Shown: positions 3,578-50,834 of the stretch, piece by piece
Layout of the letters: the number at the start of each line of letters is the position of its first letter
Numbering within the stretch: position 1 is the stretch's first letter
Origin: an uncultured delta proteobacterium
GTDB lineage: Bacteria > Myxococcota > Myxococcia > Myxococcales > Myxococcaceae
Direction: 5' to 3'
Length of the DNA: 64,000 bases
Assembly: GCA_963776345.1 (NCBI GenBank)
Contig: CAVZMH010000012.1
Location: 124,502-188,501, forward strand
Notes under the pieces: generated by a model
Told to the model about the DNA's origin: nothing
Seen by the model: only the letters and a program-made list of their open reading frames with translations
The model's database searches: none
Translations under genes and position numbers: made by a program

Positions 3578-3846
3578 CACTACGAGGTCTCCACTACGAG
3601 GTGTCTGACACCTCGAATGAGACGGTGGGTCTCGAATGCCACCACTACGAGGTGTCCACTACGAGGTGTCTGACACCTCGAATGAGACGGTGGGTCTCGA
3701 ATGCTGGACCACGAGGGCGGCGATGGGACGCATTACGCGGTGTCCCATTACGAGGTGTCCATTACGAGGTGTCCATTACGAGGTGTCTGACACCTTCCCG
3801 AGGGACACCTTCCCGAGGACACCTTCCCGACGACACCTTCCCGAGG
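3578..3846. repeat. REP-like palindromic repeat locus 1
   Basis: Three GAGGTGTCTGACACCT cores; tandem CA(C/T)TACGAGGTGTC and GACACCTTCCCGAG units; 65-bp direct duplication. Confidence 0.9.
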
Positions 3847-3864
3847 GTCCGGAGTTCTCGCCGT

Positions 3865-4800
3865 TTAGGGCGCTCGGGGCGTGTAGAGGAAGCGTTCGGG
3901 GCGGGTGCCGCCGTCACCGAGGGCGATGACCACCCACGACTCGAGGCCCTCGGCCGTCCTCCGGTAGGTGAGCCCGTCGAAGTAGACAGCGGAGCGGGCA
4001 GCCCGGACGAGCGGGAACTCGACGGCGCGCTCGGGCGACTCCCATCCGCGCAGGTCGGGCGCGAAGTGCTTCAGGCGGAAGACCAGCGACCCACCCGCCT
4101 CGACCACGGTCATCAGCTCGTAGAAGCTCACCTGGCCCCCGCGCGTCCCCCGGTACACGCCGGCGAGGGAGCCTGCGGCGGGCAGGAGCCACGCCTCCTC
4201 GGAGACACCGCCCAGGCCCTGGCCTGTCCAGTCTCCCGAGAGCCAGGCGACGGCCGACACCCGCGCGGGGGGCGAGTCGGAGCCCGGGACGGCCTTGAGC
4301 ACTGGCGGGGTCTCCCGCACCGAGGGCGGCACGGAAGGTCTGCGCCGGACCACGTGCGAGAGGCGGACCTGCTCGGGGGGTTCGCCTGGGCGCTCGAACT
4401 CGAGGACGAAGCTCTGCCCCGAGCGCCGCACGCGGAACCCGTCGAATGCCACCTCCTCCTCGGAGATCCCGACCAGGCGTCGCGGCGGGGGAGACCCCTG
4501 GGACTCGCGCCCCGCCAGCTGCGCGTCGAGGCGCTTGAACCGGAGGACGAGCGAGCCGTCCTGCTCGGTGATGGTCGCGAGGGCGTACCCGAGCACACGG
4601 CCCTCGCGGATTCGCCGGAGGACTCCGGCCATCGTTCCTGCGGAGGGCGGAAGCCAGAACGCATCGACGTGGCCGGCGGGCCCGTCTCCCTGCCACTCGC
4701 CGGAGAGCCAGCGCAGGGGCTCGAGATCGCTCCGCGGCGGCGAGGCCAGCGCCGGAACGGCGAGCAGCATCAGGCAGAGCACGGGGACCCGCGACGTCAT
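3865..4800 (-). CDS. Secreted protein with two tandem DUF6265-like domains
   Basis: Signal peptide MTSRVPVLCLMLLAVPALA; two copies of (L/V)xWLSG(E/D)WxGxG...W.....G(T/S)(M/L)AGV...GSLV(L/F)RxK. Confidence 0.7.
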   Translation of the reverse strand: MTSRVPVLCLMLLAVPALASPPRSDLEPLRWLSGEWQGDGPAGHVDAFWLPPSAGTMAGVLRRIREGRVLGYALATITEQDGSLVLRFKRLDAQLAGRESQGSPPPRRLVGISEEEVAFDGFRVRRSGQSFVLEFERPGEPPEQVRLSHVVRRRPSVPPSVRETPPVLKAVPGSDSPPARVSAVAWLSGDWTGQGLGGVSEEAWLLPAAGSLAGVYRGTRGGQVSFYELMTVVEAGGSLVFRLKHFAPDLRGWESPERAVEFPLVRAARSAVYFDGLTYRRTAEGLESWVVIALGDGGTRPERFLYTPRAP

Positions 4801-5092
4801 CCACCACCTCCCGCGCAGACCGGCCGGCGGGGGTTCCCGGTGTGTCATCGATCGGGGCGATCCGCCACATCCGAGTGAGCGCCGGCCGGCCGCGCAGGGG
4901 CAGGTGGCAGCGAGGAGGCCACGATCGGGCCGATGGAGGGTTCGGCGGTCTTCACTGACGGTCCGTTCGCGACCCTCGGCCTGCTCCTCGTCATGCTCCA
5001 CGCCCGGGCTCGTGCAGCACTTTTGGAAACGAGCGCTCGAACAGGCGACGGTGCGCTGAACGACAGCCAGGCGGTTCAAGCTGTTCACACCC

Positions 5093-5758: not shown

Positions 5759-5765
5759 GCGACCG

Positions 5766-5848
5766 CATGACGAGGTGTCCATTACGAGGTGTCTGACACC
5801 TCGTGGGGGACACCTCGTGGGGCCTCGGGGCCTCATGGGGCCTCAGGG
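5766..5848. repeat. REP-like palindromic repeat locus 2
   Basis: CATGACGAGGTGTC-CATTACGAGGTGTC-T-GACACCTCGTGGGG-GACACCTCGTGGGG, then degenerate units. Confidence 0.9.
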
Positions 5849-5855
5849 GAGGCAG

Positions 5856-6227
5856 TCAGGCGTTCCGAGGCGAGTGAAGGGCGACAGAGTTGCCCTCCGT
5901 GTCCCGGAAGACGGCGATGAAGCCCGGGTCGCCGATGTCGGTCCGGGGCATCAGCAGGGTGCCGCCGGCGGCCCGGAGCCGCTCGACGCAGGCGTCCAGC
6001 TTCCCGGCCGCGTCCAGGTAGATCAGCGTCCCTTCCGAGGAGGGCTTCCGGTGGCCGTCCTGGATGAGGGCGCCGCTGGCGTCGCTCTGCCCCGCCGGGA
6101 AGATGGCGTGGGGGACGCCTCCGAAGATCTCGCGCTTGAGTCGGACGCCGAGGACGGTCTCGTAGAACCGGACCGCCCGGTCCAGGTCCAGGGTGGGGAT
6201 CTCGAACCAGGTGAGTGCGTTGGCCAT
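5856..6227 (-). CDS. VOC/glyoxalase family protein
   Basis: NALTWFEIPTLDLDRAVRFYETVLG...GFIAVFRDTEGNSVALHS. Confidence 0.9.
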   Translation of the reverse strand: MANALTWFEIPTLDLDRAVRFYETVLGVRLKREIFGGVPHAIFPAGQSDASGALIQDGHRKPSSEGTLIYLDAAGKLDACVERLRAAGGTLLMPRTDIGDPGFIAVFRDTEGNSVALHSPRNA

Positions 6228-15502: not shown

Positions 15503-16664
15503 ATGACCGACCCCGGGGACGTCCAGCCCTTCCGCGCCAGCGTCTCGGAGGTGGTGCTGGCGGACCTGCGCGAGCGCCTCGCGGGGACGCGCTGGCCGGA
15601 ACCGGTGACCGGCGTCGGGTGGAGCGAAGGCGTCGACCAGGCCTGGCTCCGGCGCGTGGTGGCGCACTGGGAGAGCCGGTTCGACTGGCGGATCCAGGAG
15701 GCCCGGCTGAACGCCTTCCCCCAGTTCCTGGTGCGGGTGGGCGACACCCGGATCCACTGCATCCACCTGCGCGGTCGCGGGCCGAGGCCGATGCCGCTGG
15801 TCATCACCCACGGCTGGCCCGGGTCGGTGTTCGAGATGCTGCGGCTCGTCCCGCTGCTGGCGAATCCGGCCGCGCACGGAGGTTCGCCCCAGGACGCCTT
15901 CGACGTGGTGGTGCCGTCGATTCCCGGGTACGGCTTCTCGGACCGGCCGACGTCCCCCGGGATGTCGAACTCGGCGGTGGCCGACCTCTGGGTCGTGCTG
16001 ATGGAACGGCTGGGGTACCCGCGGTTCGCGGCGCAGGGCGGCGACTGGGGGGCGGGCATCTCGACCTGGGTGGCGCGAAAAGCGCGCGAGCGGCTCGTCG
16101 GCCTGCACCTCAACTACATCCCCGGCTCGTTCCGGCCCTGGGTCGAGGACGAGGCGGGGCTGAGCGCGGAGGAGCGCGGCTTCCTCGCGGACAAGGCGCA
16201 CTGGTCCGAGGAAGAAGGCGCGTACGGGCACCTGCAGTCGACACGGCCCGGGACGCTGGGCGTCGGCGCTGACGGACTCGCCGGCCGGGCTCGCGGCGTG
16301 GATCCTGGAGAAAGTCCGGGCGTGGAGCGACTGCGACGGGGACGTCGAGTCGCGATTCTCGCTGGACGAGCTACTGGCGAACGTGACCCTGTACTGGGTG
16401 ACGAACACGGCGGCGTCGTCCATCCGGTTGTACCGCGAGTCGAAGCTCACGCCGCTCCAGCTTGGGCCCGGCGAGCGGATCCGCGTGCCGATGGGGTTCG
16501 CCCACTTCCCCGCCGAGGCGCCGTCTCCTCCGCGGCGCTGGGTCGAGCGCGGCTATGACGTGCGGCGGTGGACCGAGATGCCCCGCGGTGGCCACTTTGC
16601 GGCCTGGGAGGAGCCGGAGCTGCTGGCCCAGGACCTCCGGGAGTTCTTCCGCCCCCTCAGGTGA
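15503..16664 (+). CDS. Epoxide hydrolase family protein; frameshift near 16265
   Basis: LADLRERLAGTRWPE, HGWPGS, PSIPGYGFS, QGGDWG; continues LTDSPAGLAAWILEK...RGGHFAAWEEP in the next frame. Confidence 0.9.
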
Positions 16665-16674
16665 GTCATGACTT

Positions 16675-16848
16675 TGCGAGGTGTCCTCGTACGAGGCGTC
16701 TCTCTTACGAGGTGTCTCTTACGAGGTGTCTGACGAGTGTCTTACGAGGTGTCTTACGAGGTGTCCCTTACGAGGTGTCTGACACCTTGAAGCAGACACC
16801 TTGAAGCAGCTGGCCGTCGACACCTTCAGGTCGGACACCTCGGTGTCG
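16675..16848. repeat. REP-like repeat locus 3 (3' flank of the RAYT-like gene)
   Basis: About 7 (CT)TACGAGGTGTC-like units, then core T-GACACC, then GACACCTTGAAGCA x2 and degenerate GACACCT units. Confidence 0.9.
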
Positions 16849-16861
16849 AAGCCCGAGGACG

Positions 16862-17779
16862 CTAGGTCGGTGAGGCCGGCGCAACCGGCCGCAGAAAGGG
16901 GCGGAACGCGTTCTCCGGGAACACGGCCGAGAGATCGCCGCTGCGCCAGCGAGCCGATGCCTTGGAGAATGCGGCCCGGAACGCGCGGTACCGTTCGATG
17001 AACGCTATTCTGAGGCTTGCGGAGACGGCGTGACACCAGGGTCGTCTCGAACGCTTGGGTCGATCGGGACGGTGTTGTGGATCCTGGGCAAGAACTCCGG
17101 CGCGCCCGAGGACACGCGGGTGCGCACGCCGCCCCTGCTGCTTGATCGCCTCGAGCGCACGCCGGATGAAGCGACGCCACGCGGACTTCCGAGAGAATCT
17201 CACCAGCGGCAGCGGAGTGAGCTCGAGCGCCTCCGCTTCGGCGAGCCGTTCATCGAAGCGCGGCGCAACACCCTTTCCTGAGCGAACTCCCCAGCGTCGG
17301 CTCCAGTCGAACCAGCTGAACTTTCGTGCGCGGGTGCCCAGGAACTCGGGTAGCGAACTGAGGCCGGGCCACTCCTGACAGGTCCGGACCAGCCCTTCTT
17401 TGACGCCGTGAGAGATGATGTAGCGGACGCGCGAGAGGAGGGCCCCTTCGTCGAGCACCGGCTCGGCCGAGTACCGCCGCTCCCAAAAGGCCCCTCGCCA
17501 GCCCACGAGCGCTCCGACCTTCTTCGAGATGTTCGTCAGCAAGTACTGCATGAACTGCGGGAGATTGCCCTTAGGAGCTCGGACCAACAGGTGAACGTGG
17601 TTCGACGCGAACGTGAAGCCGAAGAGCTCGACCTCGCCGCGCCTCGCGGCCCGTGCCAGCACGCCGCCCAGGACGACGTTCGTCTGCTTCGACGGACGGA
17701 GCAGAAGCCGTCCCTGGGAGCACCTGACGGTGACGAAGTAAATCTGCGCTTGCTCGTAGTTTCTCAGCGGCCAGCCCAT
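16862..17779 (-). mobile_element. REP-associated tyrosine transposase (RAYT-like, HUH/Y1 IS200-superfamily)
   Basis: IYFVTVRC, FASNHVHLLV (HUH), GAFWERRY, RYIISHGVKEGLV (catalytic Tyr region), EWPGLSS; 305 aa; flanked on both sides by the palindromic repeats; no tnpB. Confidence 0.85.
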
Positions 17780-17837
17780 GTGGAGTCCCCCTCTCCCGGG
17801 GACTCGGGAGCACGAACCGGGCCAATTGCCGCGCACC

Positions 17838-17957
17838 TCAATGACGAAGTGTTTGACACCAATGACGGACACCAATGACGAGGCAATGACGAGGTGTTTG
17901 ACACCTCCGGGGGGACACCTCCGGGGAGGACATCTCCAACACGAGGTGTGTGACACT
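17838..17957. repeat. REP-like repeat locus 4 (5' flank of the RAYT-like gene), variant cores
   Basis: AATGACGAAGTGTTTGACACC, AATGACGAGGTGTTTGACACCTCCGGGG, ACGAGGTGTGTGACAC; tandem CAATGACG and GACACCTCCGGGG units. Confidence 0.85.
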
Positions 17958-17983
17958 AGCTCCTAGAGGGCCCGAGCCTCGCC

Positions 17984-20206
<2,223 letters not shown>

Positions 20207-20207
20207 G

Positions 20208-20861
20208 TCAGTGGAGGAAGGAGGCCAGCACCCGGCGGCCATCGGCGTTGCCGAGCAGCGGCTCGGCGTTCCGCTCGGGGTGGGGCATCATCCCCAGCAC
20301 GTTGCCCGAGGCGTTCACGATGCCGGCGATGTCGTTCCGGCTCCCGTTGGGGTTCCCGACGTAGCGGAAGGCCACCTGGCCCTCGCCCTCGAGCCGCTTC
20401 AGGCCCTCGTCGTCGATGAAGTAGTTCCCGTCGCCGTGGGCGATGGGGATCCTGAACCGCTCGCCGGGCGAGAGCGTGGCGGTGAAGCGCGTCCGCGCCT
20501 TCTCCGTCCGGAGAATCACGTCCTGGCAGATGTACTGGCGGTTGGCGTTCTGGAGCAGCGCGCCCGGTAGCAGGCCCGCCTCGGTGAGGATCTGGAAGCC
20601 GTTGCAGATGCCGATGACCGGCCCGCCCTTGCGCGCGAACGCGGCGACCTCCTCCATCACCGGCGCGAAGCGGGCGATGGCCCCGCAGCGCAGGTAGTCC
20701 CCGTAGCTGAAGCCCCCGGGGAGGATGACCAGCTCGCTCCCCCGAAGGTGGTGATCCTTGTGCCAGAGCATCTGGGGCCGGTGCCCGAGAACCTGCCCCA
20801 CCACGTGAAAGGCGTCCTCGTCGCAGTTGCTGCCGGGGAAGACGACGATCCCGACCTTCAT
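20208..20861 (-). CDS. purQ: FGAM synthase glutaminase subunit PurQ
   Basis: [39 protein letters not shown]. Confidence 0.97.
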
Positions 20862-21097
20862 CCGATCTCCACCCGGAAGTTCTCCACCACCGTGTTGGCG
20901 AGGAGCTTCCGGCACATCTCCTCCACCTGGGCGCGGGCCTCGGGGCCGCTGCCGTCGGGGAGCTGCAGCTCGATGTACTTGCCCAGCCGGACACCGGAGA
21001 CCTGGCCGAAGCCGAGCGCGTGCAGGCTGCCCTCCACGGCCTTGCCGGCGGGGTCGAGCACCCCCGGCTTCAGCGTCACGTACACCCGTGCGAGCAT
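20858..21097 (-). CDS. purS: FGAM synthase subunit PurS
   Basis: VTLKPGVLDPAG..VRLGKYIEL..MCRKLLANTVVE. Confidence 0.96.
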   Translation of the reverse strand: MLARVYVTLKPGVLDPAGKAVEGSLHALGFGQVSGVRLGKYIELQLPDGSGPEARAQVEEMCRKLLANTVVENFRVEIG

Positions 21098-21242
21098 GTC
21101 ACCTCCGGTGGGAGACCCGCGGACTGGCGCGGGGCGTCGGCGCCGCCTCTATCAGCCGTCCGAGGAAGCGTCTACCCGTGTCTTAATGCAGGGTTAGAGC
21201 GTCGGCCAGCACAGTTGGGCGTGCCGTGCTAACCGTTTGGAG

Positions 21243-22574
21243 ATGCCGTCCTGGGCGCTGTGGCTCGGGTGCGTCGGCCTCCTGCTGGTCCGTGCCCTGA
21301 TGGCCGCGGCGGAGTCGGCGCTCTCGGGCGTCTCCGAGCTGAAGGCCAAGGAGCTGGCCACCCAGCACGGGAGGGCCGGCCGGCGTGTGCTCCGGCTGCG
21401 CACCCAGCGCGAGACGACGGCGTCGTCGCTCCGCATCGGGATGGTGCTCAGCGGCTTCCTGGCCGCGGGGGTCGGCGCGCTCGCGCCGCCGGCGATGGTC
21501 CAGTTCGACGTGGCCCGGCTGGGCGGGTACTGGGGCGTGCTCGCGGCGCCGCTGGCCGGCGTGCTCTTCGTGGGCCTGCTCGCTGCCCTGATGGACGTCA
21601 CCGCGCGCGCGGTGGCGAGCACCGACCCCGAGGTGGCCGCGCTGCGCCTCTCGTGGCTGGCCGGCCTGCTGTCCACGGTCCTGGGGCCGTTCGCCCGCGT
21701 GCTCCTGGCCGGGGTCAATCTGGTCCTCCGGCCGTTCGGGGTACGGGCGCGTTTCGAGCCGCCGCCGCCGCCGCTCGAGGAGCTCGAGCGGATGCTCACC
21801 GCCCAGGCCGCGAAGCAGGGGGTCGACGCGAGCGCGCCGGAGCTGATCCGCAGCGTGTTCGAGCTCTCGGACAAGCGGTGCCGGGACGTGATGGTGCCGC
21901 GCACCGAGGTGGTGGCGGTGGACATCTCGACCGCGCCGGCCGATATCCTCCGCATCCTCGCCGAGGAGAGCCATAGCCGGATCCCGGTCTACCGCGACGA
22001 CATCGACCACATCGTCGGGGTGCTACACGCGCGCGATCTGATCCCGTTCCTGCAGCACCCGGAGCTCATCGTCCTCGCCGACGTGGTGCGCCCGGCGGTG
22101 TTCGTGCCGTGGATCAAGCCGGTGGGCGACCTGCTGCGCGAGATGCAGCGTCGCCGGATCCACATGGCGATGGTCACCGACGAGTACGGCGGGTTCATGG
22201 GCGTGGTGACGCTCGAGGACATCCTGCGGGAGATCGTCGGCGACATCGCGGACGAGTTCGAGCAGCCCGAGTCGCTCATCGAGAAGCAGCCGGACGGCTC
22301 CTTCCTCGTGGACGCGATGCTCGAGGTGGACGAGTTCGCCGAGGCCTTTGGGCTTCCGCTGCCTGACGGGGAGTACGAGACGCTCGGCGGATACCTGAGC
22401 TCGCTCTCGGGAAGCATCCCCGAGGTGGGCGACCGCTTCACCTACGACGGGTGGCAGTTCACGATCGCGTCGAAGCAGGGCCCGCGGCTCGGCCGCGTCC
22501 GGATGAGCCGCCTCAAGGCGCCGCCCACTTCGACGCGCGAGGGCGGAGCGCAGCCGAGCACCGCCACGCCTTGA
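21243..22574 (+). CDS. HlyC/CorC (CNNM + CBS pair + CorC) hemolysin-family membrane protein
   Basis: AAESAL TM region; RDVMVPRTEV, HSRIPVY, TDEYGGFMGVVTLEDILREIVGDIADE, YETLGGY. Confidence 0.92.
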   Translation: MPSWALWLGCVGLLLVRALMAAAESALSGVSELKAKELATQHGRAGRRVLRLRTQRETTASSLRIGMVLSGFLAAGVGALAPPAMVQFDVARLGGYWGVLAAPLAGVLFVGLLAALMDVTARAVASTDPEVAALRLSWLAGLLSTVLGPFARVLLAGVNLVLRPFGVRARFEPPPPPLEELERMLTAQAAKQGVDASAPELIRSVFELSDKRCRDVMVPRTEVVAVDISTAPADILRILAEESHSRIPVYRDDIDHIVGVLHARDLIPFLQHPELIVLADVVRPAVFVPWIKPVGDLLREMQRRRIHMAMVTDEYGGFMGVVTLEDILREIVGDIADEFEQPESLIEKQPDGSFLVDAMLEVDEFAEAFGLPLPDGEYETLGGYLSSLSGSIPEVGDRFTYDGWQFTIASKQGPRLGRVRMSRLKAPPTSTREGGAQPSTATP

Positions 22575-22592
22575 CGCAGCGCGGCTAATTTA

Positions 22593-22724
22593 GAGCTGTC
22601 AATTACGAGGTGTCCAATTACGAGGTGTCAATTACGAGGTGTCTGACACCTTCCGGGGACACCTTCCGGGGGGGAGACACCTTCCGGGGACACCTTCCTT
22701 CCGGGCCTTCCGGGGGACACCTCC
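22593..22724. repeat. REP-like repeat locus 5
   Basis: AATTACGAGGTGTC x3, core T, then GACACCTTCCGGG x3-4 decaying outward. Confidence 0.9.
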
Positions 22725-22765
22725 TGAGGCCTCAAGCCTGACTGGGGGCCCGGAGCCCGGTCCCG

Positions 22766-23683
22766 CTACCGGCCGAGCAGTGGGTTGAGGGCGTCGACCG
22801 TGAGCGGCCAGCCGTTCCGCTGGGCGGTCAGCTGGAGCGCCCGCGCGAACTCGGAGGCGGTCTGGAACCGCTTCGCGCGGTCGGCGAAGGTCGCCTGCCG
22901 CACAACGTGGGCCAGGTACTCGGGGACCCCGGACCGGATCGGCTCGAGCAGCGGAACCTGGGCGTCGCGCACCCGCTCGAGCAGGTCCAGCTCGTTCGCC
23001 TGGGGAAACAAGCGCCGGTTCGCGATCAGCTCCCAGAGGATGACCCCGACCGAGTAGAGGTCGCTGCGCGCGTCGATGGACTCGCCAACCACCTGCTCCG
23101 GGCTCATGTAGGCCACCGTCCCGCGCAGCGCGCCGGGCTCCGCCCGGGGGAAGCCGTCGAACTCGGCGATGCCGAAGTCCGTCAGCTTCACGTCGCCGCT
23201 GACAGAGAGCAGCACGTTCGACGGATTCACGTCCCGGTGAACCAGCGGGACGGCCGGGCTCGCGCCGATCCCGCCGTGCAGATATGCGAGCGCCTCGAGC
23301 AGACACCACGCGATGTAGTTGGCTGCGGGCAGCGGCATCGGCGTGCCGGACTGGATGAGGAGCTCGAGGAAGTAGCCCAGCGTCCGGCCCGCGACGAGCT
23401 CTTGGACCATCAGGTAGTCCGAGCCCGCCTTGAAGCAGCGGAAGGTACGCACCAGGTGCCGATGCTGGAGGCGCACGGCGATCTTCGCCTCGTCGATGAA
23501 GTGCTTCACGTGCGCGCCGTCGTTGCGATACGCGGGAAGCAGCCGCTTGAGCACGACCTCCGGTCCTTCTCCGGCGACGGGAGTGGTCGTGGGAAGCGGC
23601 CTGGCCTGATAGACCTCGGCCATCCCGCCAACCGCGAGACGACCCACGATCTCGTAGCCTCCGAGCTCTCGGTCCAGCGCCAC
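22766..23683 (-). CDS. Hanks-type Ser/Thr protein kinase (catalytic domain only)
   Basis: LAVGGMAEVY, VVLKRL, HRDVNPSN, DFG, YMSPEQ, DARSDLYSVG. Confidence 0.93.
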   Translation of the reverse strand: MALDRELGGYEIVGRLAVGGMAEVYQARPLPTTTPVAGEGPEVVLKRLLPAYRNDGAHVKHFIDEAKIAVRLQHRHLVRTFRCFKAGSDYLMVQELVAGRTLGYFLELLIQSGTPMPLPAANYIAWCLLEALAYLHGGIGASPAVPLVHRDVNPSNVLLSVSGDVKLTDFGIAEFDGFPRAEPGALRGTVAYMSPEQVVGESIDARSDLYSVGVILWELIANRRLFPQANELDLLERVRDAQVPLLEPIRSGVPEYLAHVVRQATFADRAKRFQTASEFARALQLTAQRNGWPLTVDALNPLLGR

Positions 23684-23782
23684 GGGTCAGGAGTCTACCG
23701 CGCAGCCCGGGGCCCCCGGCGGATCCTGTGGAAATCCGGCGGCGACCGACGCATTGTGCGCGGACCTCTTGAGGGAGCTTGG

Positions 23783-24112
23783 ATGGTCTTCGCGCCGAGT
23801 CTCGTGTCTGGCATTGGAGCGTTGCTCTTCACCGTCATCGGAGCCGTCATCGGGCTGCTCGGCCCGGTGCTGCTCCTCCCACTCTGGCGAATCTTCGGCG
23901 CCAAGACCGTGCCGCTCTCACTGCTCGCCTCGGTGGGTCTGGGCATCGCCGGGGGAGTGACCGCGGGGATGCTCACGCCGTTCTTCGCGCCGGCGGGGCA
24001 GATGTTCCACGCGGTGTGGTGGGGATTCCTGCTCGCGGCGGGCAATGCCGGCGGCGTGGTCTTTACCGGGGCGATGATCGCCTCGGTTCCGGCCCGGAAC
24101 GCCGGGTACTGA
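23783..24112 (+). CDS. Small hypothetical membrane protein (about 3 TM)
   Basis: GAGGGAG RBS; MVFAPSLVSGIGALLFTVIGAVIGLLGPVLLLPLW..., strongly hydrophobic. Confidence 0.6.
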   Translation: MVFAPSLVSGIGALLFTVIGAVIGLLGPVLLLPLWRIFGAKTVPLSLLASVGLGIAGGVTAGMLTPFFAPAGQMFHAVWWGFLLAAGNAGGVVFTGAMIASVPARNAGY

Positions 24113-24307
24113 ACCGTCCCAGGTTTGACGCCGACCGCCCGGTCCCGAGTCTCCCTGTGGTCCGGGAGCGAGCGGGCGCTTGCGACCGATTTCCGCCGAG
24201 TGTTTGCCACGCCCCGCCCCCGCCGCCAGAACGGGCGCGGGCCTGGTGGCTCCGGGCATCGGCCGGAGTCCGGCTCCGGTCGCAACCACCCGTCCTTCTT
24301 CACCTTC

Positions 24308-24373
24308 TCGAGGTGTCAGACACCTCGTAATGACAGACACCTCGTAATGGCCTCGTAATGGACACCTCGTCAT
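24308..24373. repeat. REP-like repeat locus 6 (inverted orientation)
   Basis: CGAGGTGTC-A-GACACCTCGTAATG followed by GACACCTCGTAATG, CCTCGTAATG, GACACCTCGTCATG. Confidence 0.9.
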
Positions 24374-24379
24374 GGCGCC

Positions 24380-25798
24380 TCAGCGGGACTGCGGACTCGC
24401 GACGGGGTCGTCCCAGCCGCCGAGGTCGGCCGCCAGCCGTTCGGCGTCCCGGGGGCCCCAGCTCGCCGGCTCGTAGAACTGGAGCGGGGTGACGTTGCCC
24501 AGGATGGGCTCGACCACCGCCCATGCCGCCTCCACCGCGTCCTGCCGGACGAAGAGCGTAGCGTCCCCGTTCATCGCGTCGGTGAGCAGCCGCTCGTACG
24601 CGTCCGCCTCGTCGCTGCTCTGCTGCTTCACCGCCGCCAGCTCCACCGTCTGCCCCACCAGCTCGGGACCCGGCTTCTTCACCCTTGCGCTGAGCGACAG
24701 CGCCATGTCCGGTCCGAGCCGGAAGCGGAAGGTGTTCGCGTCGCGCCGGGTGAGCTTCCGAAGCGGGGGCCGGCGCAGCTTCACCACCACCTCGGTCGCC
24801 GTCACCGGCATGCACTTCCCCGAGCGGATGAGGAACGGCACCCCGTCCCATCGCCACGACGAGACCTGGAGGCGGACCGCGGCGTACGTCTCCACCTGCG
24901 ACGCGGGCGCGACCCCCGGCTCCTGCCGGTACCCTACGAACTGACCGCGGACCACGTCCTCGGGACGGATGGGCGGAATGGCCCGGAAGACGTCCCCCAC
25001 CTCGTTCCGCACCGATTCCCAGTACAGGTCGGACGGCGGCTCCATCGCCAGGAAGCCGATGACTTGAAGGAGGTGGTTCTGCACCACGTCCCGGATGCAG
25101 CCGGCCTCTTCGTAGAACCGGCCGCGTCCCTCCACGCCGAAGTTCTCGGCCATGGTGATCTGCACGCTCTCCACGTAGTTCCGGTTCCAGATCGGCTCCA
25201 GGAACGTGTTGGAGAAGCGGAAGAACAGGAGGTTCTCCACCGCCTCCTTCCCCAGGTAGTGGTCGATGCGAAAGACCGAGCGCTCGGGGAACACCTGGTG
25301 GAGGATCCGGTTCAGCTCCTCGGCGGAGGCGAGGTCCCGTCCGAACGGCTTCTCCACCACCACCCGCGCGCCCTCGGCGCAGCTCGAGCGGCTCAGCGCC
25401 TCGACGACCGTGGCGAACAGGGTGGGCGGGATCGCCAGGTAGTGCGTCGCCGCCCGCGCTCCCTCCAGCAGCGACTTGAGCTGGGTGAAGGTCGCGGGGT
25501 CGCCGTAGTCGCCATCGACGTAGCGCAGCTGCGACATCAGCTTGGAGAACGCCGGCTCGCGCACCCCGGCTCCGTGCTTCTCCACGCTCTCGCGCGCCCG
25601 CGCCTTCAGCTGCTCGAGCGTCCAGCCGGCCTTCGCCACGCCGATGACCGGACAGTCGAGAACACCGCTTTCCACCATCGACTGGAGCGCGGGGAAGATC
25701 TTCTTGTAGGCCAGGTCACCGGTCGCACCGAAGAACACCAGCGCGTCGGAACGGGTGCTGGCCTTCGGGCCCTGCCAGAACGCATCCGCGCCGCTCAT
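24380..25798 (-). CDS. zwf: Glucose-6-phosphate 1-dehydrogenase
   Basis: [43 protein letters not shown]. Confidence 0.96.
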
Positions 25799-31351: not shown

Positions 31352-31441
31352 CGGGCGCCGGGCTCTTAGCAAGCCGCGGGCCCGCCGGCACGAGGCGTTC
31401 GGCGCGGCATCCTCCGGAAATCACGACCAGTGGAGCCTCGG

Positions 31442-31528
31442 TCCGAGGCGGTCTGAGGCCGGTCTGAGGGGTCTGAGGTGTCAGACACCTCGTAATGGAC
31501 ACCTCGTCATGGACACCTCGTCATCGTG
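31442..31528. repeat. REP-like repeat locus 7 (inverted orientation)
   Basis: GGTCTGAGG units, GAGGTGTC-A-GACACCTCGTAATG, GACACCTCGTCAT x2. Confidence 0.88.
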
Positions 31529-34713: not shown

Positions 34714-35025
34714 CGGAGCGCGGGATGCTAGCAGCCCCGGCCAAACCGCCATCCGGCGCGCACCGAGGCGCACACGGAGCGAGGCGTTCGAGCGCCGCTG
34801 GTTTCCACAGCCCAGCGGCTCGGACCGAGTCCGCCGAGGGCACGTCGCCCTCACGGATCTCCCGAGGACCTCGCGGACGAGAGCTCGTCGCGGAGCCGCC
34901 GAGCCGCCGGGCGGCGACCGGGAACGACCTCCAGGGCCGCGGGACCGTCCGCCTGCCCGCGCCCGAGGGGGTGAAAGAAGCCCCAGGTCAGCGCACCGTG
35001 CGGAGGCGCTCGCCGCGATGATGAG

Positions 35026-35291
35026 GCCGACGAGGTGTCGGCCGTCGAGGCCCGACGAGGTCTCCTCCGACGAGATGTCTCCGACGAGATGTCTCCGACG
35101 AGGTGTCTGACACCCTCCGAGGGACACCCTGCCGAAGGCCCTTCCGAGGCCGAGGCCGCCCCATTACGAGGTGTCTGACATTACGAGGTGTCATCTACGA
35201 GGTGTCTGACACCTTCTCACTACGAGGTGTCTGACACCTTCCGAAACAGTCCATTACGAGGTGTCTGACACCTTCCGAAACACCTTCCGAG
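35026..35291. repeat. REP-like repeat locus 8 (multi-core)
   Basis: CCGACGAG(G/A)TGTC units; four full GGTGTCTGACACC cores plus one truncated core. Confidence 0.9.
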
Positions 35292-37309: not shown

Positions 37310-38107
37310 ATGACCAGCGTCCTCCCCTGGTGGGAAGGGTTCTTCGACCAGGAGTACGTACGGCTCTGGGGCCAGCTCTCCGCGCCGGGTGCCGATGAGG
37401 CGGCGTCGCTCTGGCGCATCCTCGGTCTGTCCGCGCGATGCCGGGTGCTGGACGCAGGTTGCGGCGACGGGCGGGTGGCGCTTCCACTCGCGCGTCTGGG
37501 AGCGATCGTCCTCGGAGTCGACCAGTCCGCCGCGCTGCTCGCCGAGGCGGAGCGCCGGCGGGGTGAGCTCCGCCCGGAGCGGCTCCGCTACCTCCGGCAC
37601 GATCTCCGGACCCCATTGGCCGAATCCGGGTTCGACGTCGCGATCAGCCTCTTCAGCTCTCTGGGGTACGGCACCGAGGCCGAGGACGCGGCGATCCTCC
37701 GCACCCTGACCTCGGCCGTCGGTGACGGTGGCCGTGTGGTCATCGACACGATGCACCGCGACGTCCTCGCGGCGCGACTCGCCCGGGACACCGTCCCGGC
37801 GCAGCGCCTGCCCGATGGGACGCTGCTGATCGAGGAGCCCCGGTTCGATCCGGTCGCAGGCAGGGTCGAGACCACCTGGTATTGGGCCGGGCCGGGTGGC
37901 TCGGGCCAGAGGTCGGCCTCGATCAGGGTCTACACGATCACCGAGCTGGTCCGGCTGATCGAGGCCGCGGGGCTGCGGTTCCGCGCCGCGCTCCATCCGG
38001 GCTCCGGCACGCCCTTCAGCCCGGCGGGCCCGTCGCTCGGCGGCCGGGTCCTTCTGGTGGCCGAACGGACGGTGTCCGGAGGCAGTCTCCCGGCGCCAGG
38101 CTCCTGA
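37310..38107 (+). CDS. Class I SAM-dependent methyltransferase
   Basis: RVLDAGCGDGR, FDVAISLFSSLGY. Confidence 0.88.
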   Translation: MTSVLPWWEGFFDQEYVRLWGQLSAPGADEAASLWRILGLSARCRVLDAGCGDGRVALPLARLGAIVLGVDQSAALLAEAERRRGELRPERLRYLRHDLRTPLAESGFDVAISLFSSLGYGTEAEDAAILRTLTSAVGDGGRVVIDTMHRDVLAARLARDTVPAQRLPDGTLLIEEPRFDPVAGRVETTWYWAGPGGSGQRSASIRVYTITELVRLIEAAGLRFRAALHPGSGTPFSPAGPSLGGRVLLVAERTVSGGSLPAPGS

Positions 38108-41797: not shown

Positions 41798-41872
41798 CAT
41801 TACGAGGTGTCTGACACCTCCCGTCGCCTCCCGTCGACCTCCCCGCCGGTAACGAGGTGTTTGGCACCTCGA
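41798..41872. repeat. REP-like repeat locus 9
   Basis: CATTACGAGGTGTCTGACACCTCCCGTCG-CCTCCCGTCG; second variant core ACGAGGTGTTTGGCACCTCG. Confidence 0.85.
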
Positions 41873-47679: not shown

Positions 47680-47992
47680 TCTATTTCGAGGTGTCATTGT
47701 GTCCCATTTCGAGGTGTCTGACACCTCGATCCGGACACCTCGATTCGGGGCGTCGATTCGGTCCGCAACCTCTCGTGATCCTGGGAGGACCCGAGGCTCA
47801 CCCAGGTCCACGGCCGAGGACTGGGCCATCTCGTTCGAGGTGTTCTCGTTCGGGGACAGAACCCCTCGTTCGGGACGCCTTGTTCGGACAGCCCGGCTGA
47901 GAGGTGCCTATTTCGAGGTGTCATTTCGAGGTGTCTGACACCTCGATTTGGGGGAGAACTGGTTCGAGGGCACCTCGCTCGGACACCTCGCT
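47680..47992. repeat. REP-like repeat locus 10 (two cores about 215 bp apart)
   Basis: ATTTCGAGGTGTC units, cores GAGGTGTCTGACACCTCGAT at about 47710 and 47927, GACACCTCG units; degenerate CTCGTTCG units between them. Confidence 0.88.
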
Positions 47993-48185
47993 CCGGCTCC
48001 TCGGCTCGGGCCTAGTGGAGCCGGGGAGCCGGTCCTCCCAGGTCCGTACCGCATCGCGTTGGACGGTGCGGCTGCTTGCTCGGCCACCGACGGCCCGCGG
48101 GGCGCGGGCCGGGCGCAGGAAGGCCCCCGGCGCCGCCGATTTCGTCGCCTCCAACCGCCCCGGCCCGTGCGAGTCTCCCGGGCTT

Positions 48186-50726
48186 GTGACGACCGACGAC
48201 CGCAACTTCCGCCTCTCCCGGGACGTCCTCCCCCGGCGCACCCAGGCGACGCTCACCCTGGACCTCGATGCGCGGACCTTCGCCGGCGAGGCCGAGTTCA
48301 CGCTCTCGGTCGAGCAGCCGGTCCGGAGCCTCGTCCTGCACGCGGTGGAGCTCGACGTCTCCCGCGCCGAAGTGCACGCCGGCGGCCACACGGCCCGCGC
48401 CAGCGTCCGGGTACAGCCGGTGAGCGAGACGGTGGTGCTCGACCTCGACGCCGAGCTGCCGAAGGGCGAGGCCCGTCTGCACCTCGCGTGGACCGGACGC
48501 TTCACCGAGGGGCTGCGGGGCCTCTACCTGGCTGGCCCGGTCGCGGCGACCCAGTTCGAGGCGGCCGATGCCCGACGGGTCTTCCCCTGCTTCGACGAGC
48601 CGGCGTTCAAGTGCACCTGGGCGCTCACGGTGAAGGTGCCGCCCGGCCTCGTCGCGCTGAGCAACGGCCGCGTGCTCGCCGAGGAGCTCGAGGGCCACCA
48701 CCGGAAGGTCCGCTTCGCGGAGACCGAAGTGCTCCCGAGCTACCTGGTGGCGCTGGTGGTGGGGCCGCTCGTCTCCACCGCCGAGGAGAGCGCGGCGGGC
48801 ATCCCCGTGCGGACCTGGTGCCTCGAGGAGAAAGGGGCGCTGCTCGGCTTCGGCCAGCAGACCGCGCTCGCCGTGCTGCCGCGGCTCCAGGACTACTTCG
48901 GCCTCCCGTACGCGTTCGGGAAGCTCGACCAGGTCGGCATCCCCGACTTCGAGGCCGGGGCCATGGAGAACGCCGGGCTCATCACCTACCGCGAGGTGGC
49001 GCTGCTGCTCGACCCGGCCACCGCGCCACTCTCGGTCCAGAAGCGCGTCGCCGAGGTGGTGACCCACGAGCTCGCCCACCAGTGGTTCGGCAACTGGGTG
49101 ACGATGGTCTGGTGGGACGACCTCTGGCTCAACGAGGCCTTCGCCACCTGGATGGCCTACAAGATCGTCGACGGCTGGCGGCCGGACTGGCGGGTGTGGC
49201 TCGACTTCGACACCGGGAAGGCCACCGCCCTCCACCTGGACGCGCTGCGCTCCACCCATCCCATCCGCGGCACGGTGGCGAACGCGGCCGAGGCCACCGA
49301 GAGCTTCGACGCCATCACCTACGAGAAGGGCGGCGCGGTCCTCCGGATGATCGAGGGCTTCGTCGGCGAGGAGGCCTTCCGGGCGGGCATCCGCGACTAC
49401 ATGCGCAAGCACGCGCGCGCGAACGCCGTCGCCGATGACCTCTGGGGAGCGCTGGCCAGGGCCTCGCACGCGCCGGTGGTCGAGCTGGCCAACGCGTGGA
49501 TCCGCCAGAGCGGCTACCCGGTGGTGAGCGTGACGCTCGAGGGCAACCGCGTGCGCGTCTCCCAGGGGCGCTTCTTCTCCGAGCCCGGCCTCGCCGGGCC
49601 CGAGACCTGGCCGGTGCCGCTGGTCCTCGCCTGGGGCGACGACCGGGGCCGGCACACCCGGACGTTCCTCCTCGAGGGGCAGACCGGAGAGGTGACGCTG
49701 GAGGCCGCGGGCCCGGTGCGCTGGCTGGACGCGAACGCGGGGTCCACCGGCTTCTACCGGGTCGCGTACTCGGCCGTGCTGCTGGCGGGGCTGGGCAAGG
49801 CTCTCGCCGATCTGCTCCCGGCCGAGCGCATCGGGCTGCTCGCGGACCAGTGGGCGCTGGTCCGGGCCGGCCGGGCGCGCATCTCGGACTTCCTGGACCT
49901 GGTGCTCGCCTTCGGCGGGGAGTCGGACCATGCCGTGCTCGACGAGCTCGTGGGACGGCTGGCCTACATCGAGGCGCGCCTGGTCGACGGCGACGACCAG
50001 GAGCGCTTCCGGCGGCTCGTCGAGCGGCTCTTCCTCCCGCGGCTCCGGCAGATGGGCTGGGACCCGGTGGCCGGCGAGACGGACCAGGATCGGCTGCGGC
50101 GCGCGGCCCTCCTCCGCGCGGTGGCGGGCGTGGCGCGCGAAAGATCGGTGCTCGCGGAGACCGCGCCCCGCGTGGACCGGGTGCTCAACGGACAGCGCAC
50201 CGCGCTCGACCCCAACCTGGTGGATACCGCGGTGGCGGTCACCGCCCGCGACGGGGACGGCGAGCTGTTCGACCAGCTCCGCGCCGCGTTCCCGCAGGAG
50301 CCGGACCCGGCGGTGAAGCGGCGATACCTCCTGGCGCTGACCGCCTTCGAGCGGCCCGAGCTCGTGGACCGTGCCCAGGCGATGCTCCTCGACGGCGCCG
50401 TGCCGCTCCAGGACTTCGCCTCCTTCGTGCACGGCATGCTGGCGAACCGCGAGGCGCGCGAGGGCAGCTGGAAGCTGCTGCGCGACCGCTGGTCGACGGT
50501 GATGGAGAAGACCGCCGGCGCGCCGATGCTGCTCCGCCGCGTGGTGGAGGCGCTGGGCAACCTCCGCGAGCGGCGGCACCTCGACGAGGCCCGGGCGTTC
50601 CTCTCCGCGCACCCGGTGGCCGAGGCGCAGCAGGCCGTGGCACAGACTCTCGAGCGCCTGGCGCAGGACGTCGCCCTGCGCGAGCGGCTGGTTCCCGAGG
50701 TCTCGGTGTGGCTCCGCGGCCGGTGA
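48186..50726 (+). CDS. M1 family aminopeptidase with an ERAP1-like C-terminal domain
   Basis: TQFEAADARRVFPCFDEP, GAMEN, HELAHQWFGN..WLNEAFA, YEKG. Confidence 0.94.
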   Translation: MTTDDRNFRLSRDVLPRRTQATLTLDLDARTFAGEAEFTLSVEQPVRSLVLHAVELDVSRAEVHAGGHTARASVRVQPVSETVVLDLDAELPKGEARLHLAWTGRFTEGLRGLYLAGPVAATQFEAADARRVFPCFDEPAFKCTWALTVKVPPGLVALSNGRVLAEELEGHHRKVRFAETEVLPSYLVALVVGPLVSTAEESAAGIPVRTWCLEEKGALLGFGQQTALAVLPRLQDYFGLPYAFGKLDQVGIPDFEAGAMENAGLITYREVALLLDPATAPLSVQKRVAEVVTHELAHQWFGNWVTMVWWDDLWLNEAFATWMAYKIVDGWRPDWRVWLDFDTGKATALHLDALRSTHPIRGTVANAAEATESFDAITYEKGGAVLRMIEGFVGEEAFRAGIRDYMRKHARANAVADDLWGALARASHAPVVELANAWIRQSGYPVVSVTLEGNRVRVSQGRFFSEPGLAGPETWPVPLVLAWGDDRGRHTRTFLLEGQTGEVTLEAAGPVRWLDANAGSTGFYRVAYSAVLLAGLGKALADLLPAERIGLLADQWALVRAGRARISDFLDLVLAFGGESDHAVLDELVGRLAYIEARLVDGDDQERFRRLVERLFLPRLRQMGWDPVAGETDQDRLRRAALLRAVAGVARERSVLAETAPRVDRVLNGQRTALDPNLVDTAVAVTARDGDGELFDQLRAAFPQEPDPAVKRRYLLALTAFERPELVDRAQAMLLDGAVPLQDFASFVHGMLANREAREGSWKLLRDRWSTVMEKTAGAPMLLRRVVEALGNLRERRHLDEARAFLSAHPVAEAQQAVAQTLERLAQDVALRERLVPEVSVWLRGR

Positions 50727-50756
50727 CACGGGCGCCCGATGCGGGCGGACAAGGCC

Positions 50757-50834
50757 AAAACGAGTAAATCGAGAAAACGAGGTGTCAAGAAAACGAGGTG
50801 TCAGACACCTCGTTTTGTGACACCTCGTTTTGTG
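50757..50834. repeat. REP-like repeat locus 11 (inverted; perfect 13-bp arms)
   Basis: AAAACGAGGTGTC-A-GACACCTCGTTTT at 50790-50816, with each arm duplicated outward. Confidence 0.9.

Follow-up and report, generated by a model that had tools for sequence, protein, structure and literature searches.

In the window (the whole stretch of 64,000 nucleotides analysed here), small palindromes carry short tandem arrays in which the repeated unit is a single hairpin arm plus 4-9 flanking bases. Judged by their sequence, these loci belong, as REPs, to a REP/RAYT system with its RAYT gene inside the window, and the comparisons below indicate that amplification of the arms in place is real. Tandem arrays of whole REPs and REPs flanking RAYT genes are already published; arm-only arrays were not found in the literature. 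The arm arrays likely mark where the putative partner enzyme cuts.

The palindrome GGTGTC-W-GACACC (GGTGTCWGACACC) had 16 exact matches in the window, against an expectation of 0.00 and with none of 100 shuffles reaching 16; the whole genome had 45. The first-pass annotation had listed 11 loci, eight in one orientation and three inverted, and the exact pattern count agreed: the 16 copies were spread over eight T-centred loci (3600/3665/3782, 5788, 16774, 22638, 35102-35260, 41806, 47713 and 47930) and three A-centred loci (24312, 31477 and 50797). With up to two mismatches allowed in the 17-mer, 18 places were found in the window against 0.02 expected, including variant cores at 17891 and 41854 that were missing from the earlier list. 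The element is asymmetric, with the consensus [target DNA]-GA-GGTG(T/C)C-A-(G/A)ACACC-TC-GTWAC(C). According to a crude gene call on open frames, the array loci lie between long open frames of high GC3, many of them between convergent genes.

Tandem units of 12-17 nt abut the window cores, on one side or on both. Their linkers are those named in the first-pass annotation, and its description of half-sites reiterated in short units holds. At 3578..3704 (+), a whole REP with its flank is present as two tandem 65-nt copies (cores 3598-3614 and 3663-3679), each with two left units, CACTACGAGGT(C/G)TC. The array at 3731..3846 (+; core 3780-3796) has four left units CATTACGAGGTGTC, the outermost degenerate, and four right units GACACCTTCCCGAG; that at 5766..5848 (+; core 5786-5802) has two left and two right units with the linkers CATKAC and GTGGGG. 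At 22593..22714 (+; core 22636-22652), three to four left units ((C)AATTACGAGGTGTC) and four to five right units (GACACCTTCCGGG) were found. The array at 24310..24361 (-; core 24310-24326, A-centred on the + strand) has tag-side units, two of which are 17 nt long and take in two bases from across the dyad (CAGACACCTCGTAATGA), and the one at 31439..31524 (-; core 31475-31491, A-centred) has three tag-side units GACACCTCGT(A/C)ATG and, on the opposite side, degenerate units of 10-11 nt. A cluster of four cores (35100, 35199, 35224 and 35258) with arm arrays occupies 35023..35290 (+). The locus at 41804..41870 (+) combines a core with short right repeats (41804-41820) and a variant core, GAGGTGTTTGGCACCTC, at 41854-41870. 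About two left units CATTTCGAGGTGTC, one of them broken, and three right units GACACCTCGATYCG flank the core 47711-47727 (47680..47760, +), while two left units ATTTCGAGGTGTC and degenerate right units flank the core 47928-47944 (47901..48009, +). The last array (50772..50834, -; core 50795-50811, A-centred) has two units per side, complementary to each other; in single-stranded form it would fold into a near-perfect ladder hairpin of 28 bp.

Genome-wide, a strict parser detected at least two tandem units (range 2-8) on 69 of the 236 arms of 118 family cores. As controls, random positions gave 5 of 1000, and solitary GGTGTC words distant from cores 6 of 1938. In 35 of 38 clean arrays, the periodicity broke off precisely at the final half-site base, beside the central base; the exceptional units ended 2-4 nt across the dyad, still inside the predicted loop. 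Amplification rates were alike on the two sides (37 and 30 of 100), and the number of units on the left was nearly independent of that on the right (rho 0.19). The linkers were mostly non-complementary, at least six of eight flank bases being symmetric at only 8 of the 118 cores. The arrays are predicted to fold as single strands into ladder hairpins in which L1 pairs with R1, L2 with R2 and so on (z -4 to -9 in four of five arrays).

The flanks copied with the half-sites had been called locus-specific. This was correct for the non-tag flank, where locus-specific DNA was duplicated along with the arm, but several of the left linkers (CATTA, CACTA, CTTA and AATTA) are variants of the conserved tag of the family. 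The locus-specific copied flank, together with variable or empty orthologous sites and unit-sized differences between strains, argues for amplification in place, as had been claimed. Orthologous spacers in sister species were empty, held a single REP, or held arrays with the same linker and other unit numbers; the spacer of the 22593..22714 array was compared across nine sister species. Near-identical strains were separated by unit-sized indels, as judged from k=31 metagenome contigs in which repeats may collapse and from alignments that, inside tandem arrays, cannot tell which unit was gained or lost. In strain X19, about 51 nt of inner units were absent at 16734-16795 with the outer degenerate units shared, one 14-nt unit fewer was present at 35065, 43 letters replaced 155 at 35130-35286, and extra letters were found at 41804..41870. 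No arrays copied as a whole between loci were found, in line with the earlier reading, except where whole REPs had been duplicated locally in tandem.

The likely partner gene had been overlooked by the first-pass annotation. It is a RAYT-like gene (HUH/tyrosine, IS200-like) at 16862..17779 (-), encoding 305 amino acids counted from MGWPLR. One REP array lies directly 3′ of it (16677..16850, +; core 16772-16788), with about eight left units CTTACGAGGTGT... and, on the right, two clean and two degenerate units. Another lies directly 5′ (17840..17955, +), around the variant core GAGGTGTTTGACACCTC at 17891-17907; its units consist of linker plus whole or partial core (AATGACG...) on one side and of GACACCTCCGGGG on the other. 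This flanking by two arrays points to a REP/RAYT system. A sigma-54-type -24/-12 element, TGGCCCGGTTCGTGCT, is predicted at 17809..17824 (-), 29 nt upstream of the start codon, and at RAYT loci a REP array is placed just upstream of this conserved promoter type.

PF01797 had three matches in the genome, including one inside the window (Pfam E 3.8e-7 for the window protein). The protein has the HUH motif NHVH (H61, H63) and Tyr120 as its predicted catalytic residue, and it is extended at the C-terminus by about 165 amino acids; the HUH motif and Tyr120 were invariant across 36 homologs, and homologs are annotated RayT by JGI. Its best solved relative, in sequence and in fold, was E. coli TnpA_REP (4ER8; E 0.0027; E 3.9e-5). 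Two observations speak against the RAYT assignment: the match to NCBIfam REP_Tyr_transpos (E 4.5e-16) scored 59 bits, under the cut-off of 80, and the window protein has YxxxHG in place of Y---NP, the signature of class 2 RAYTs as given in the part of PMC6006769 used here.

The genome has three RAYT paralogs, mutually 58-63% identical, and all three are flanked by family palindromes, each with its own core subtype. At the RAYT loci of relatives, a core was found by the search pattern within 200 nt upstream in 17 of 23 cases, with variant cores in four more. Within the family, at least three cores were present in 9 of 18 RAYT-positive genomes but in 0 of 63 RAYT-negative ones. By subtype, 16 of 45, 19 of 24 and 7 of 19 cores lay no more than 50 kb from the cognate RAYT gene (P 1e-16, 2e-28 and 4e-10), and similar clustering was seen, judged by eye, in genomes G007, G008 and G010. 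Arms with at least two units were commoner on the contig that carries the RAYT gene, C12 (20 of 32), than elsewhere in the genome (21 of 56, P 0.028), and commoner in this genome than in three sister genomes without this RAYT ortholog (10 of 46, P 0.005). Perfect two- and three-unit arrays were nevertheless present in sister genomes without this ortholog, where other paralogs are kept.

What causes the amplification, a RAYT nick at the hairpin tip or slippage, we infer from these patterns. Tentatively, and with the balance close to even, we favour a duplication that starts when the RAYT nicks the hairpin next to its central base. The enzyme would bind the hairpin in single-stranded or cruciform DNA and cut 3′ of the central base on either strand; repair synthesis would extend the 3′-OH by 12-16 nt, and the displaced, enzyme-linked 5′ end would be re-joined. 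In every cycle the innermost unit would be copied beside the core and older units shoved outward, with the RAYT acting chiefly near its own gene and replication slippage later changing unit numbers. A nick at the dyad is suggested by the 35 of 38 arms whose arrays halt at the central base and by exceptional units that end within the predicted loop, and the similar, nearly independent amplification of both arms is expected if the hairpin of each strand is cut separately. The excess on C12 and the lower frequency in the three sister genomes link the arrays to RAYT dose, and the clustering within 50 kb is consistent with action near the gene. Known Y1 enzymes (IS608 TnpA, E. coli TnpA_REP) cut the single-stranded flanks of their hairpins rather than the loop; this and the arrays in sister genomes without this ortholog tell against the proposed mechanism. 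Core orientation showed no association with GC skew (P 1.0), the skew itself being weak, and we counted this against the mechanism as well.

The data support, but do not prove, growth from the core outward as proposed in the first-pass annotation. Across the 30 arms that have three or more units, adjacent units differed by 0.87 edits on average in the innermost pair and by 2.73 in the next, and the first pair was better than the last in 27 arms, equal in three and worse in none; inner units are thus the most perfect, on a measure biased by a parser that requires a perfect core and is more lenient on outer units. The exact abutment on the central base and the absence of inner units in X19 at 16734-16795, with the outer degenerate ones shared, also favour outward growth. 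Its strict version is contradicted by one locus, 35052-35108, where the variant GAGATGTC is common to two middle units and missing from the innermost unit and from strain X19. This points to at least one duplication away from the core, and copying of the innermost unit only does not predict such a shared variant.

A quite possible, though doubtful, alternative is that these are REP/RAYT loci whose arm arrays arose independently of the RAYT: stalled replication or host nucleases at the hairpin would have produced a misaligned short duplication, followed by slippage or unequal exchange. Inner uniformity would then reflect the greater slippage of identical units and selection that keeps the core-proximal arm intact for the hairpin. 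Unit-sized indels between strains are the expected product of slippage, GAGATGTC in two middle units requires duplication off the core, and arrays exist in genomes without this ortholog. Slippage gives no reason, however, why the inner boundary should fall exactly on the central base despite differing linkers, as it does in 35 of 38 arms. Also against this alternative, 1932 of 1938 solitary GGTGTC words are array-free, and arrays are in excess on C12 over the rest of the genome and in this genome over the three ortholog-free sister genomes. Degradation of the core-proximal linker, which an edge effect should cause as well, was not seen.

It is improbable that the arrays were selected as functional sites, with duplication as the raw material, either as iterated half-sites for a DNA-binding protein (the RAYT or a sigma-54 promoter activator) or as ladder-hairpin transcript ends or stabilisers. 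The long ladder hairpins, the REP array immediately upstream of the sigma-54-type promoter and the convergent genes around many loci agree with such roles, but the almost uncorrelated unit numbers and non-complementary linkers imply that a longer stem is not generally built, and unit numbers vary freely among strains and species, with some sites empty. Assembly or base-calling stutter at hairpins has a negligible chance of accounting for the units: some copy-number differences do rest on k=31 contigs able to collapse perfect repeats, but contigs from four other sequencing runs of different studies bridge the window arrays, similarly built arrays are present in at least 12 sister genomes that were assembled independently, as well as in genera further removed, and the units bear point variants of their own.

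The loci had been said to differ from classical REP doublets and BIMEs. As REPs with a RAYT gene in the window they do not, and they share with the E. coli REP/BIME and TnpA_REP system (RAYT, YafM; 'REPtron') an HUH-Y1 gene with flanking small extragenic palindromes, which are scattered through the genome as well, the best PDB match, and a GTAG-like conserved tetranucleotide beside the hairpin. The tag is here on the opposite side (hairpin-GTWA on the A-centred strand, that is 5′-TWAC-hairpin on the T-centred one, versus the canonical 5′-GT[AG]G-hairpin), the stem is a perfect, bulge-free 8 bp, and the protein differs from TnpA_REP in its 305-aa length, C-terminal extension and YxxxHG. The claimed difference stands for the arm-only arrays, which fall outside the published BIME and REPIN descriptions, including the parts of PMC3116915 and PMC3733652 covered here: BIMEs alternate whole REPs in opposite orientation, and here single arms are iterated.

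With IS200/IS605 transposases (IS608 TnpA, ISDra2 TnpA) the system shares the HUH-Y1 fold (structure-match ranks 2-25) and hairpin substrates. IS608 inserts 3′ of TTAC, and the T-centred strand here often has TTAC or CTAC directly 5′ of the hairpin. Unlike these elements, the system lacks both TnpB and an element bounded by left and right ends, and its RAYT paralogs are not identical copies.

In Pseudomonas fluorescens SBW25, according to the sections of Bertels and Rainey (2011, PMC3116915) used here, each of three RAYT genes is accompanied by a cluster of REPs from its own group, flanking DNA is included where elements repeat in tandem, and inheritance is vertical with low gene copy number, all as in our genome. 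What repeats there is an entire REPIN or REP together with its flanks, at periods of about 70-180 bp or more, versus half a palindrome at 12-17 nt here. REPINs are also dispersed genome-wide, whereas here 29-64% of a subtype's loci lie no more than 50 kb from the cognate gene. Whole REPs are also reiterated in the clusters of Di Nocera et al. (2013, PMC3733652), in whose available text the word 'half' does not occur and myxobacteria are not mentioned. What the present genome adds is amplification of both arms, on 69 arms in one genome, with a comparison across species and strains and with clustering around the RAYT gene.

The window has a G+C content of about 70% and belongs to a 5.10-Mb assembly of 24 contigs. 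The 13-mer GGTGTCWGACACC had 16 matches in it against 0.00 expected, and these were at 11 loci, eight T-centred and three A-centred, just as the first-pass annotation of the sequence had counted them. When a 17-mer was searched with up to two mismatches, 18 places were found (0.02 expected), including variant cores at 17891 and 41854. A genome scan for GGTGTC[TA]GACACC, which the annotation had suggested, returned 45 exact cores, 16 of them inside the window. The relaxed core GGTG[TC][CT]N0-1[GA][GA]CACC occurred 181 times in the genome and 15 times in a reversed-genome control. The distribution of this REP family was very patchy: contigs C3, C13, C15, C16 and C18 (2.2 Mb in total) had 0–1 family loci each, and most loci were on C12 (the contig of the window), C14, C17, C22 and C23. 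Core orientation was not associated with local GC skew (73 loci, P = 1.0), a test that says little on replication strand because the skew is weak. No Rfam family was matched at gathering thresholds in the entire window.

Tandem Repeats Finder and direct reading detected runs of 12–17-nt units next to the cores, either on one side or on both, with each unit consisting of one palindrome arm and 4–9 further bases. In the genome, a parser that accepted an array only if its two innermost units were 78% identical or more found 2–8 units on 69 of the 236 arms of 118 family cores. The same parser reported arrays at 5 of 1000 random positions and at 6 of 1938 solitary GGTGTC words with no core within 200 nt. 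Genome-wide, 34 of the 110 merged Tandem Repeats Finder arrays whose period was 10–20 nt and not divisible by three adjoined a family core. The end of the periodicity coincided exactly with the final base of the half-site in 35 of the 38 arms with an equal-length inner unit pair; therefore, the arrays of both sides abut the single central base, and their inner boundary is at the dyad. In a few arrays the units crossed the dyad by 2–4 nt (17-nt units at 35162–35211 and 24317–24349, 21-nt units at 17843–17905). The arrays were intergenic by a crude GC3 gene call, which overlooked several real genes including that of the RAYT described below and shows only that they are outside the frames called.

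We oriented 100 cores by their central base and obtained the consensus [unconserved G+C-rich flank]-GA-GGTG(T/C)C-A-(G/A)ACACC-TC-G-T-(T/A)-A-C-C. On the A-centred strand, conservation was confined to the 3′ flank, and the 5′ flank beyond GA was not conserved. The tetranucleotide following CACCTC was GTTA in 35 of the 100 cores, GTAA in 12, GTGA in 8 and GTAG in 4, with GTTT, GTCA and others in fewer. The element is thus asymmetric with a conserved tag, and the left linkers CATTA, CACTA, CTTA and AATTA, which had been taken for locus-specific flanks, are therefore variants of the family tag. That description held for the linkers on the non-tag side, which are true local DNA. Arms were amplified on the non-tag side in 30 of the 100 cores and on the tag side in 37. 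Where local DNA was copied along with the arm, the duplication can only have occurred in place.

In single-stranded form, the arrays gave ladder hairpins on folding, with the left units pairing one after another with those on the right. The folding z-scores of four array loci were −3.95, −2.67, −8.97 and −6.18, compared with −1.9 for a single core with short flanks. The numbers of left and right units were nearly uncorrelated (rho = 0.19, Fisher P = 0.12), and six or more of the eight flank bases were symmetric in only 8 of 118 cores. Lengthening of the stem is thus not the general rule. Joint growth of both arms was rejected on account of the same weak correlation.

The amplification in place could be followed across species. 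At the spacer orthologous to window 22560–22760, compared in nine sister species, G003 and G006 had no REP, and G007 had one degenerate core. In G008, G005, G004 and G002 there were one or two units, and their left linker was AATTA as in the window. G001 had a different linker and two units per side, G010 had five cores with many units, and the window had 3–4 left and 4–5 right units. Downstream of the gene ending at 3486, G003, G010 and G007 each had a single REP followed by a window-like flank (GAGACGGTGGGTC-like), G005 had 2–3 right units, G004 had two cores, and the window had three cores with arrays; no REP was present within the 430 nt read in six genomes. The genes flanking this last cluster (3486–3865) were about 2–3.9 kb apart in relatives (L059 in G003, L060 in G010 and L061 in G007) versus about 380 nt here, a space filled with the three REP cores. 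In G003 and G010 this interval held a minus-strand ORF of 506 aa, and in G007 a related ORF. Loss of the gene through REP–REP recombination was not supported, because its distal end had no second REP in G003 or G010.

For near-identical strains, we used k=31 contigs from soil-metagenome runs holding up to half of the sampled words of the 8-kb stretch 16500–24500. Window parts without contig cover and the small word shares of runs X16–X24 were left unused. The contigs bridged the arrays, and the changes were unit-sized. For example, run X19 had exactly 14 nt missing at 35065, 43 letters in place of 155 nt at 35130–35286, 9 nt missing at 47698, small matched changes on both sides at 50784–50828, extra letters at 41819, and net changes of −51 nt at 16734–16795 and −34 nt at 17860–17910. 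At the array at 22.6 kb, X1 and X7 had 16 and 59 gap letters, respectively. Perfect multi-unit repeats might have collapsed in k=31 contigs; this should not affect the 14-nt case, where the identical units are only two (28 nt), or the cases in which the units are imperfect. The arrays are hypervariable: as in variable-number tandem repeats, the number of head-to-tail units differed among strains and also among species. The amplification in situ that the first-pass annotation had claimed is thus borne out by the copied local flanks and by these differences in unit number. The comparison with orthologous sites and strains that it had proposed as a check brought out both empty sites and unit-sized differences, the latter subject to possible collapse of repeats in the contigs. 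In the same contigs, X7 and X19 skipped 319 nt at 37562–37882, with six other letters (TGAGCG) between, a strain-level indel that falls within or between genes and is unrelated to REPs.

The annotation had overlooked a RAYT-like gene inside the window. A genome search with Pfam PF01797 gave three matches above the Pfam cut-off, one of which was at 16862–17779 on the minus strand; the two paralogs were on C14 and C23. The window protein scored 30.7 bits against Y1_Tnp (PF01797; cut-off 23, E = 3.8e-7). Against the NCBIfam equivalog NF047646 (REP_Tyr_transpos) it scored 59 bits, under the cut-off of 80, with a match covering 4–144 of 146 profile positions. The sole PDB match of a profile of the three paralogs was E. 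coli TnpA_REP (4ER8, E = 0.0027). An AlphaFold model (pLDDT 85.8) had 4ER8 as its best Foldseek match, followed by the ISDra2, IS200 and IS608 transposases. The HUH motif NHVH (H61, H63) and Y120 were invariant in 36 homologs, for which JGI gives the label 'REP element-mobilizing transposase RayT'. In the three-paralog profile alignment, Y120 was aligned with the third Tyr-bearing motif, VDY, of 4ER8, whose tyrosine we take, by counting on the alignment, to be the catalytic Tyr115.

The protein departs from known RAYTs in several respects. Its tyrosine motif was Y(I/V/L)xxHGVKEG, with H124 and G125 invariant. A C-terminal extension of about 165 aa (residues ~140–305, window 16862–17360) was conserved, with a pLDDT near 90 and with W156, W159, C249, H250 and W278 invariant; our PDB searches with the RAYT gave no match for it beyond the HUH domain. 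In the accessible part of PMC6006769, class 2 TnpA_REP proteins all have Y---NP, and the Y-x-x-x-H-G of the window RAYT sets it apart from them by motif. For class 3 HuH-Y proteins, the same source gives a Y----Q motif, along with flanking structures like CCGAGCCGCGACCGTAAGGGAGCGG that have a CnGA foot. This class of Quentin et al. 2018 was rejected as the home of the RAYT, which has no Q after the tyrosine and whose palindrome is unlike those repeats as far as the source describes them.

The RAYT and the REPs form a pair. REP arrays directly adjoined both ends of the window gene (16677–16850 and 17840–17955). The C14 paralog was flanked by GAGGTGTCAAACACCTC and GAGGTGCCAAACACCTC arrays, the C23 paralog had an array of three GGCCACCGAGGTGTC upstream, and family palindromes flanked all three paralogs. 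The repeats crowded around the genes: within 50 kb of the cognate RAYT were 16 of 45 perfect cores, 19 of 24 GGTGCCAARCACC cores and 7 of 19 GGTGTCAAACACC cores or, with tandem cores merged, 10 of 35, 9 of 14 and 5 of 17 loci, respectively (P = 1e-16 to 5e-7). Similar crowding was seen by eye near RAYT genes of G007, G008 and G010. This crowding around each gene suggests that a RAYT acts near the site of its making.

The association extended beyond this genome. Among 23 RAYT loci in Myxococcaceae MAGs, a core was found by pattern within 200 nt upstream in 17, variant cores were present in 4 and none in 2; iterated arms were seen by eye at no fewer than 12. Of 8 loci read in the family's more distant genera, 5–6 had iterated arms, again by eye, though around different core sequences. 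The RAYT clade is also carried by the complete genomes G021, G087 and G105, which have 7–19 matches. A RAYT gene was present in 18 of 81 Myxococcaceae genomes. Three or more cores of the pattern occurred in 9 of the 18 RAYT-positive versus 0 of the 63 RAYT-negative genomes, a test that overstates the co-occurrence because the genomes are related and not independent.

Whether the arrays grow from the core outward bears on their origin. The first-pass annotation had proposed such polarised growth, by nicking and duplication, and this interpretation is partly supported. Of 30 arms with at least three units, 27 had a closer match within the innermost pair than within the outermost, 3 had no difference between the two pairs, and none had the reverse. 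Distances to the array medoid averaged 0.6 in inner units, 0.73 in middle units and 3.57 in outer units. Both figures come from a parser that favours such a gradient, as it demands a perfect core and applies a laxer threshold to outer units. At 35052–35108, GAGATGTC was common to two middle units, and the innermost unit reads GAGGTGTC; X19 had one unit fewer there and a G at 35089. The simplest history would be a mutation in a unit other than the innermost, followed by duplication of that unit. The shared variant counts against strict growth by the innermost unit alone.

We tentatively favour, at somewhat under even chances, an origin of the arm arrays in nicking, extension and rejoining by the RAYT, with slippage in addition. 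The RAYT would cut the hairpin of either strand 3′ of its central base, the 3′-OH would be extended by 12–16 nt, and the enzyme-linked 5′ end would be re-joined. The net result would be one more copy of the innermost unit, and slippage might later alter the unit numbers.

A somewhat less probable, still substantial alternative is misalignment stimulated by the hairpin independently of any RAYT, again with slippage. At 16677–16780, the outer degenerate units were common to X19 and the window and about four inner units were absent in X19. This fits a change close to the core, and slippage between the units most alike would fit too. Dependence on the enzyme can be approached through unit numbers. 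For the perfect subtype, 41 of 88 arms in this genome had at least two units (20 of 32 on C12 and 21 of 56 elsewhere, P = 0.028), versus 10 of 46 (P = 0.005) in 20 regions of three sister genomes without an ortholog of the window RAYT (G003 3/14, G007 1/6, G006 6/26). The nearest RAYT identity in these three genomes was at most 63%; because they keep other RAYT paralogs, the link between array and enzyme is only a trend. Perfect cores numbered 39, 14, 22, 14, 24, 23 and 24 in genomes with the ortholog, counting the one of G004 that is split in two frames, and 17, 14, 7, 12, 2 and 6 in genomes without it. The ortholog of G010 may lie past a contig end. That of G004 (C21:633047–633953) matched as two overlapping pieces in different frames (residues 1–99 and 94–302) and is therefore probably frameshifted; this genome still holds 24 perfect cores.

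Selection for a function as the main reason why the arrays persist appears improbable, and an artefact is highly improbable.

A bolder form of the RAYT account, which we regard as doubtful, is that the arm arrays are a running tally, in which each repaired RAYT nick at the hairpin tip would add one arm-plus-flank unit by the core. If so, RAYT action would for the first time have been traced in vivo through its footprints: the arrays would place the cut next to the central base and would indicate that most of the enzyme's activity falls no farther than tens of kilobases from the gene encoding it. The abrupt inner end of the arrays gives a concrete prediction of where the RAYT would cleave.

As in REPtrons, there is a HUH-Y1 (PF01797) gene, the palindromes flank it and are also dispersed, and gene and repeats co-occur across genomes. 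The canonical 5′ GT[AG]G foot before the hairpin is absent, and the conserved flank is instead 3′ of the A-centred strand. BIMEs consist of whole REPs alternating in orientation with defined spacers, whereas here single arms are repeated in one orientation on each side of a core. Direct repeats of whole REPs were also present, with a 65-nt period at 3578–3704 and a 25–34-nt spacing at 35199–35274. A REPIN forms one long hairpin from two inverted REPs and a spacer; here, single palindromes form ladder hairpins from iterated arms. IS200/IS605 elements occur as near-identical copies with end hairpins and often tnpB, whereas the paralogs here are 58–63% identical. The ORFs of 200 aa or more listed next to the C14 and C23 copies included no second transposition gene.

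The accessible parts of PMC3116915, PMC3733652 and PMC6006769 describe RAYT genes with flanking REPs, genomes in which each of several RAYTs has a separate REP group, and whole REPs or REPINs that are tandemly repeated together with flanking DNA. No description of arm-only tandem arrays was found in these parts or in literature searches with incomplete journal cover. A search on RAYT and REP in Myxococcus returned nothing related, and myxobacterial genera were not found in the supplements of PMC6006769, of which table 2 was available for part 7 only. According to the accessible text of PMC6006769 and PMC3116915, the cellular role of RAYTs and how REPs multiply are still open; no in vivo reconstitution of RAYT/REP movement was found in the literature covered. 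The present genome offers a natural data set in this respect, with 69 amplified arms and three enzyme–repeat pairs side by side in 5.1 Mb, and the genus adds empty and filled orthologous sites and strain-level differences. The arrays could also serve as strain markers for uncultured soil myxobacteria. Many RAYT homologs (proteins P0002–P0121) were alone on contigs just 1.1–2 kb long in public assemblies, as expected if flanking arrays break short-read assemblies.

The surroundings of the RAYT genes had two further features. A sigma-54-type −24/−12 element, TGGC-N8-TGC[TA], was 27–46 nt upstream of the start codon at 29 of 34 RAYT loci, against a background of 0.7% per 122 nt; the loci were the window gene, L004–L027, L062–L068 and the C14 and C23 copies. 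The window copy was at 17809–17824 (−), and one locus, L068, had the canonical TGGCAC-N5-TTGCT. At RAYT genes, the REP array was directly upstream of this putative promoter. Judging from the motif, genes of the clade of the window's RAYT may need an enhancer-binding activator. In large complete genomes (G087 and G105; loci L062, L063 and L067), the RAYT was between inverted copies of a sequence that is itself no hairpin, GGTGTCAAAGGACTCG upstream and CGAGTTCTTTGACACC downstream. Each copy had outward tandem arrays of its GGTGTC/GACACC part, as if the gene had split the two arms of a palindrome.
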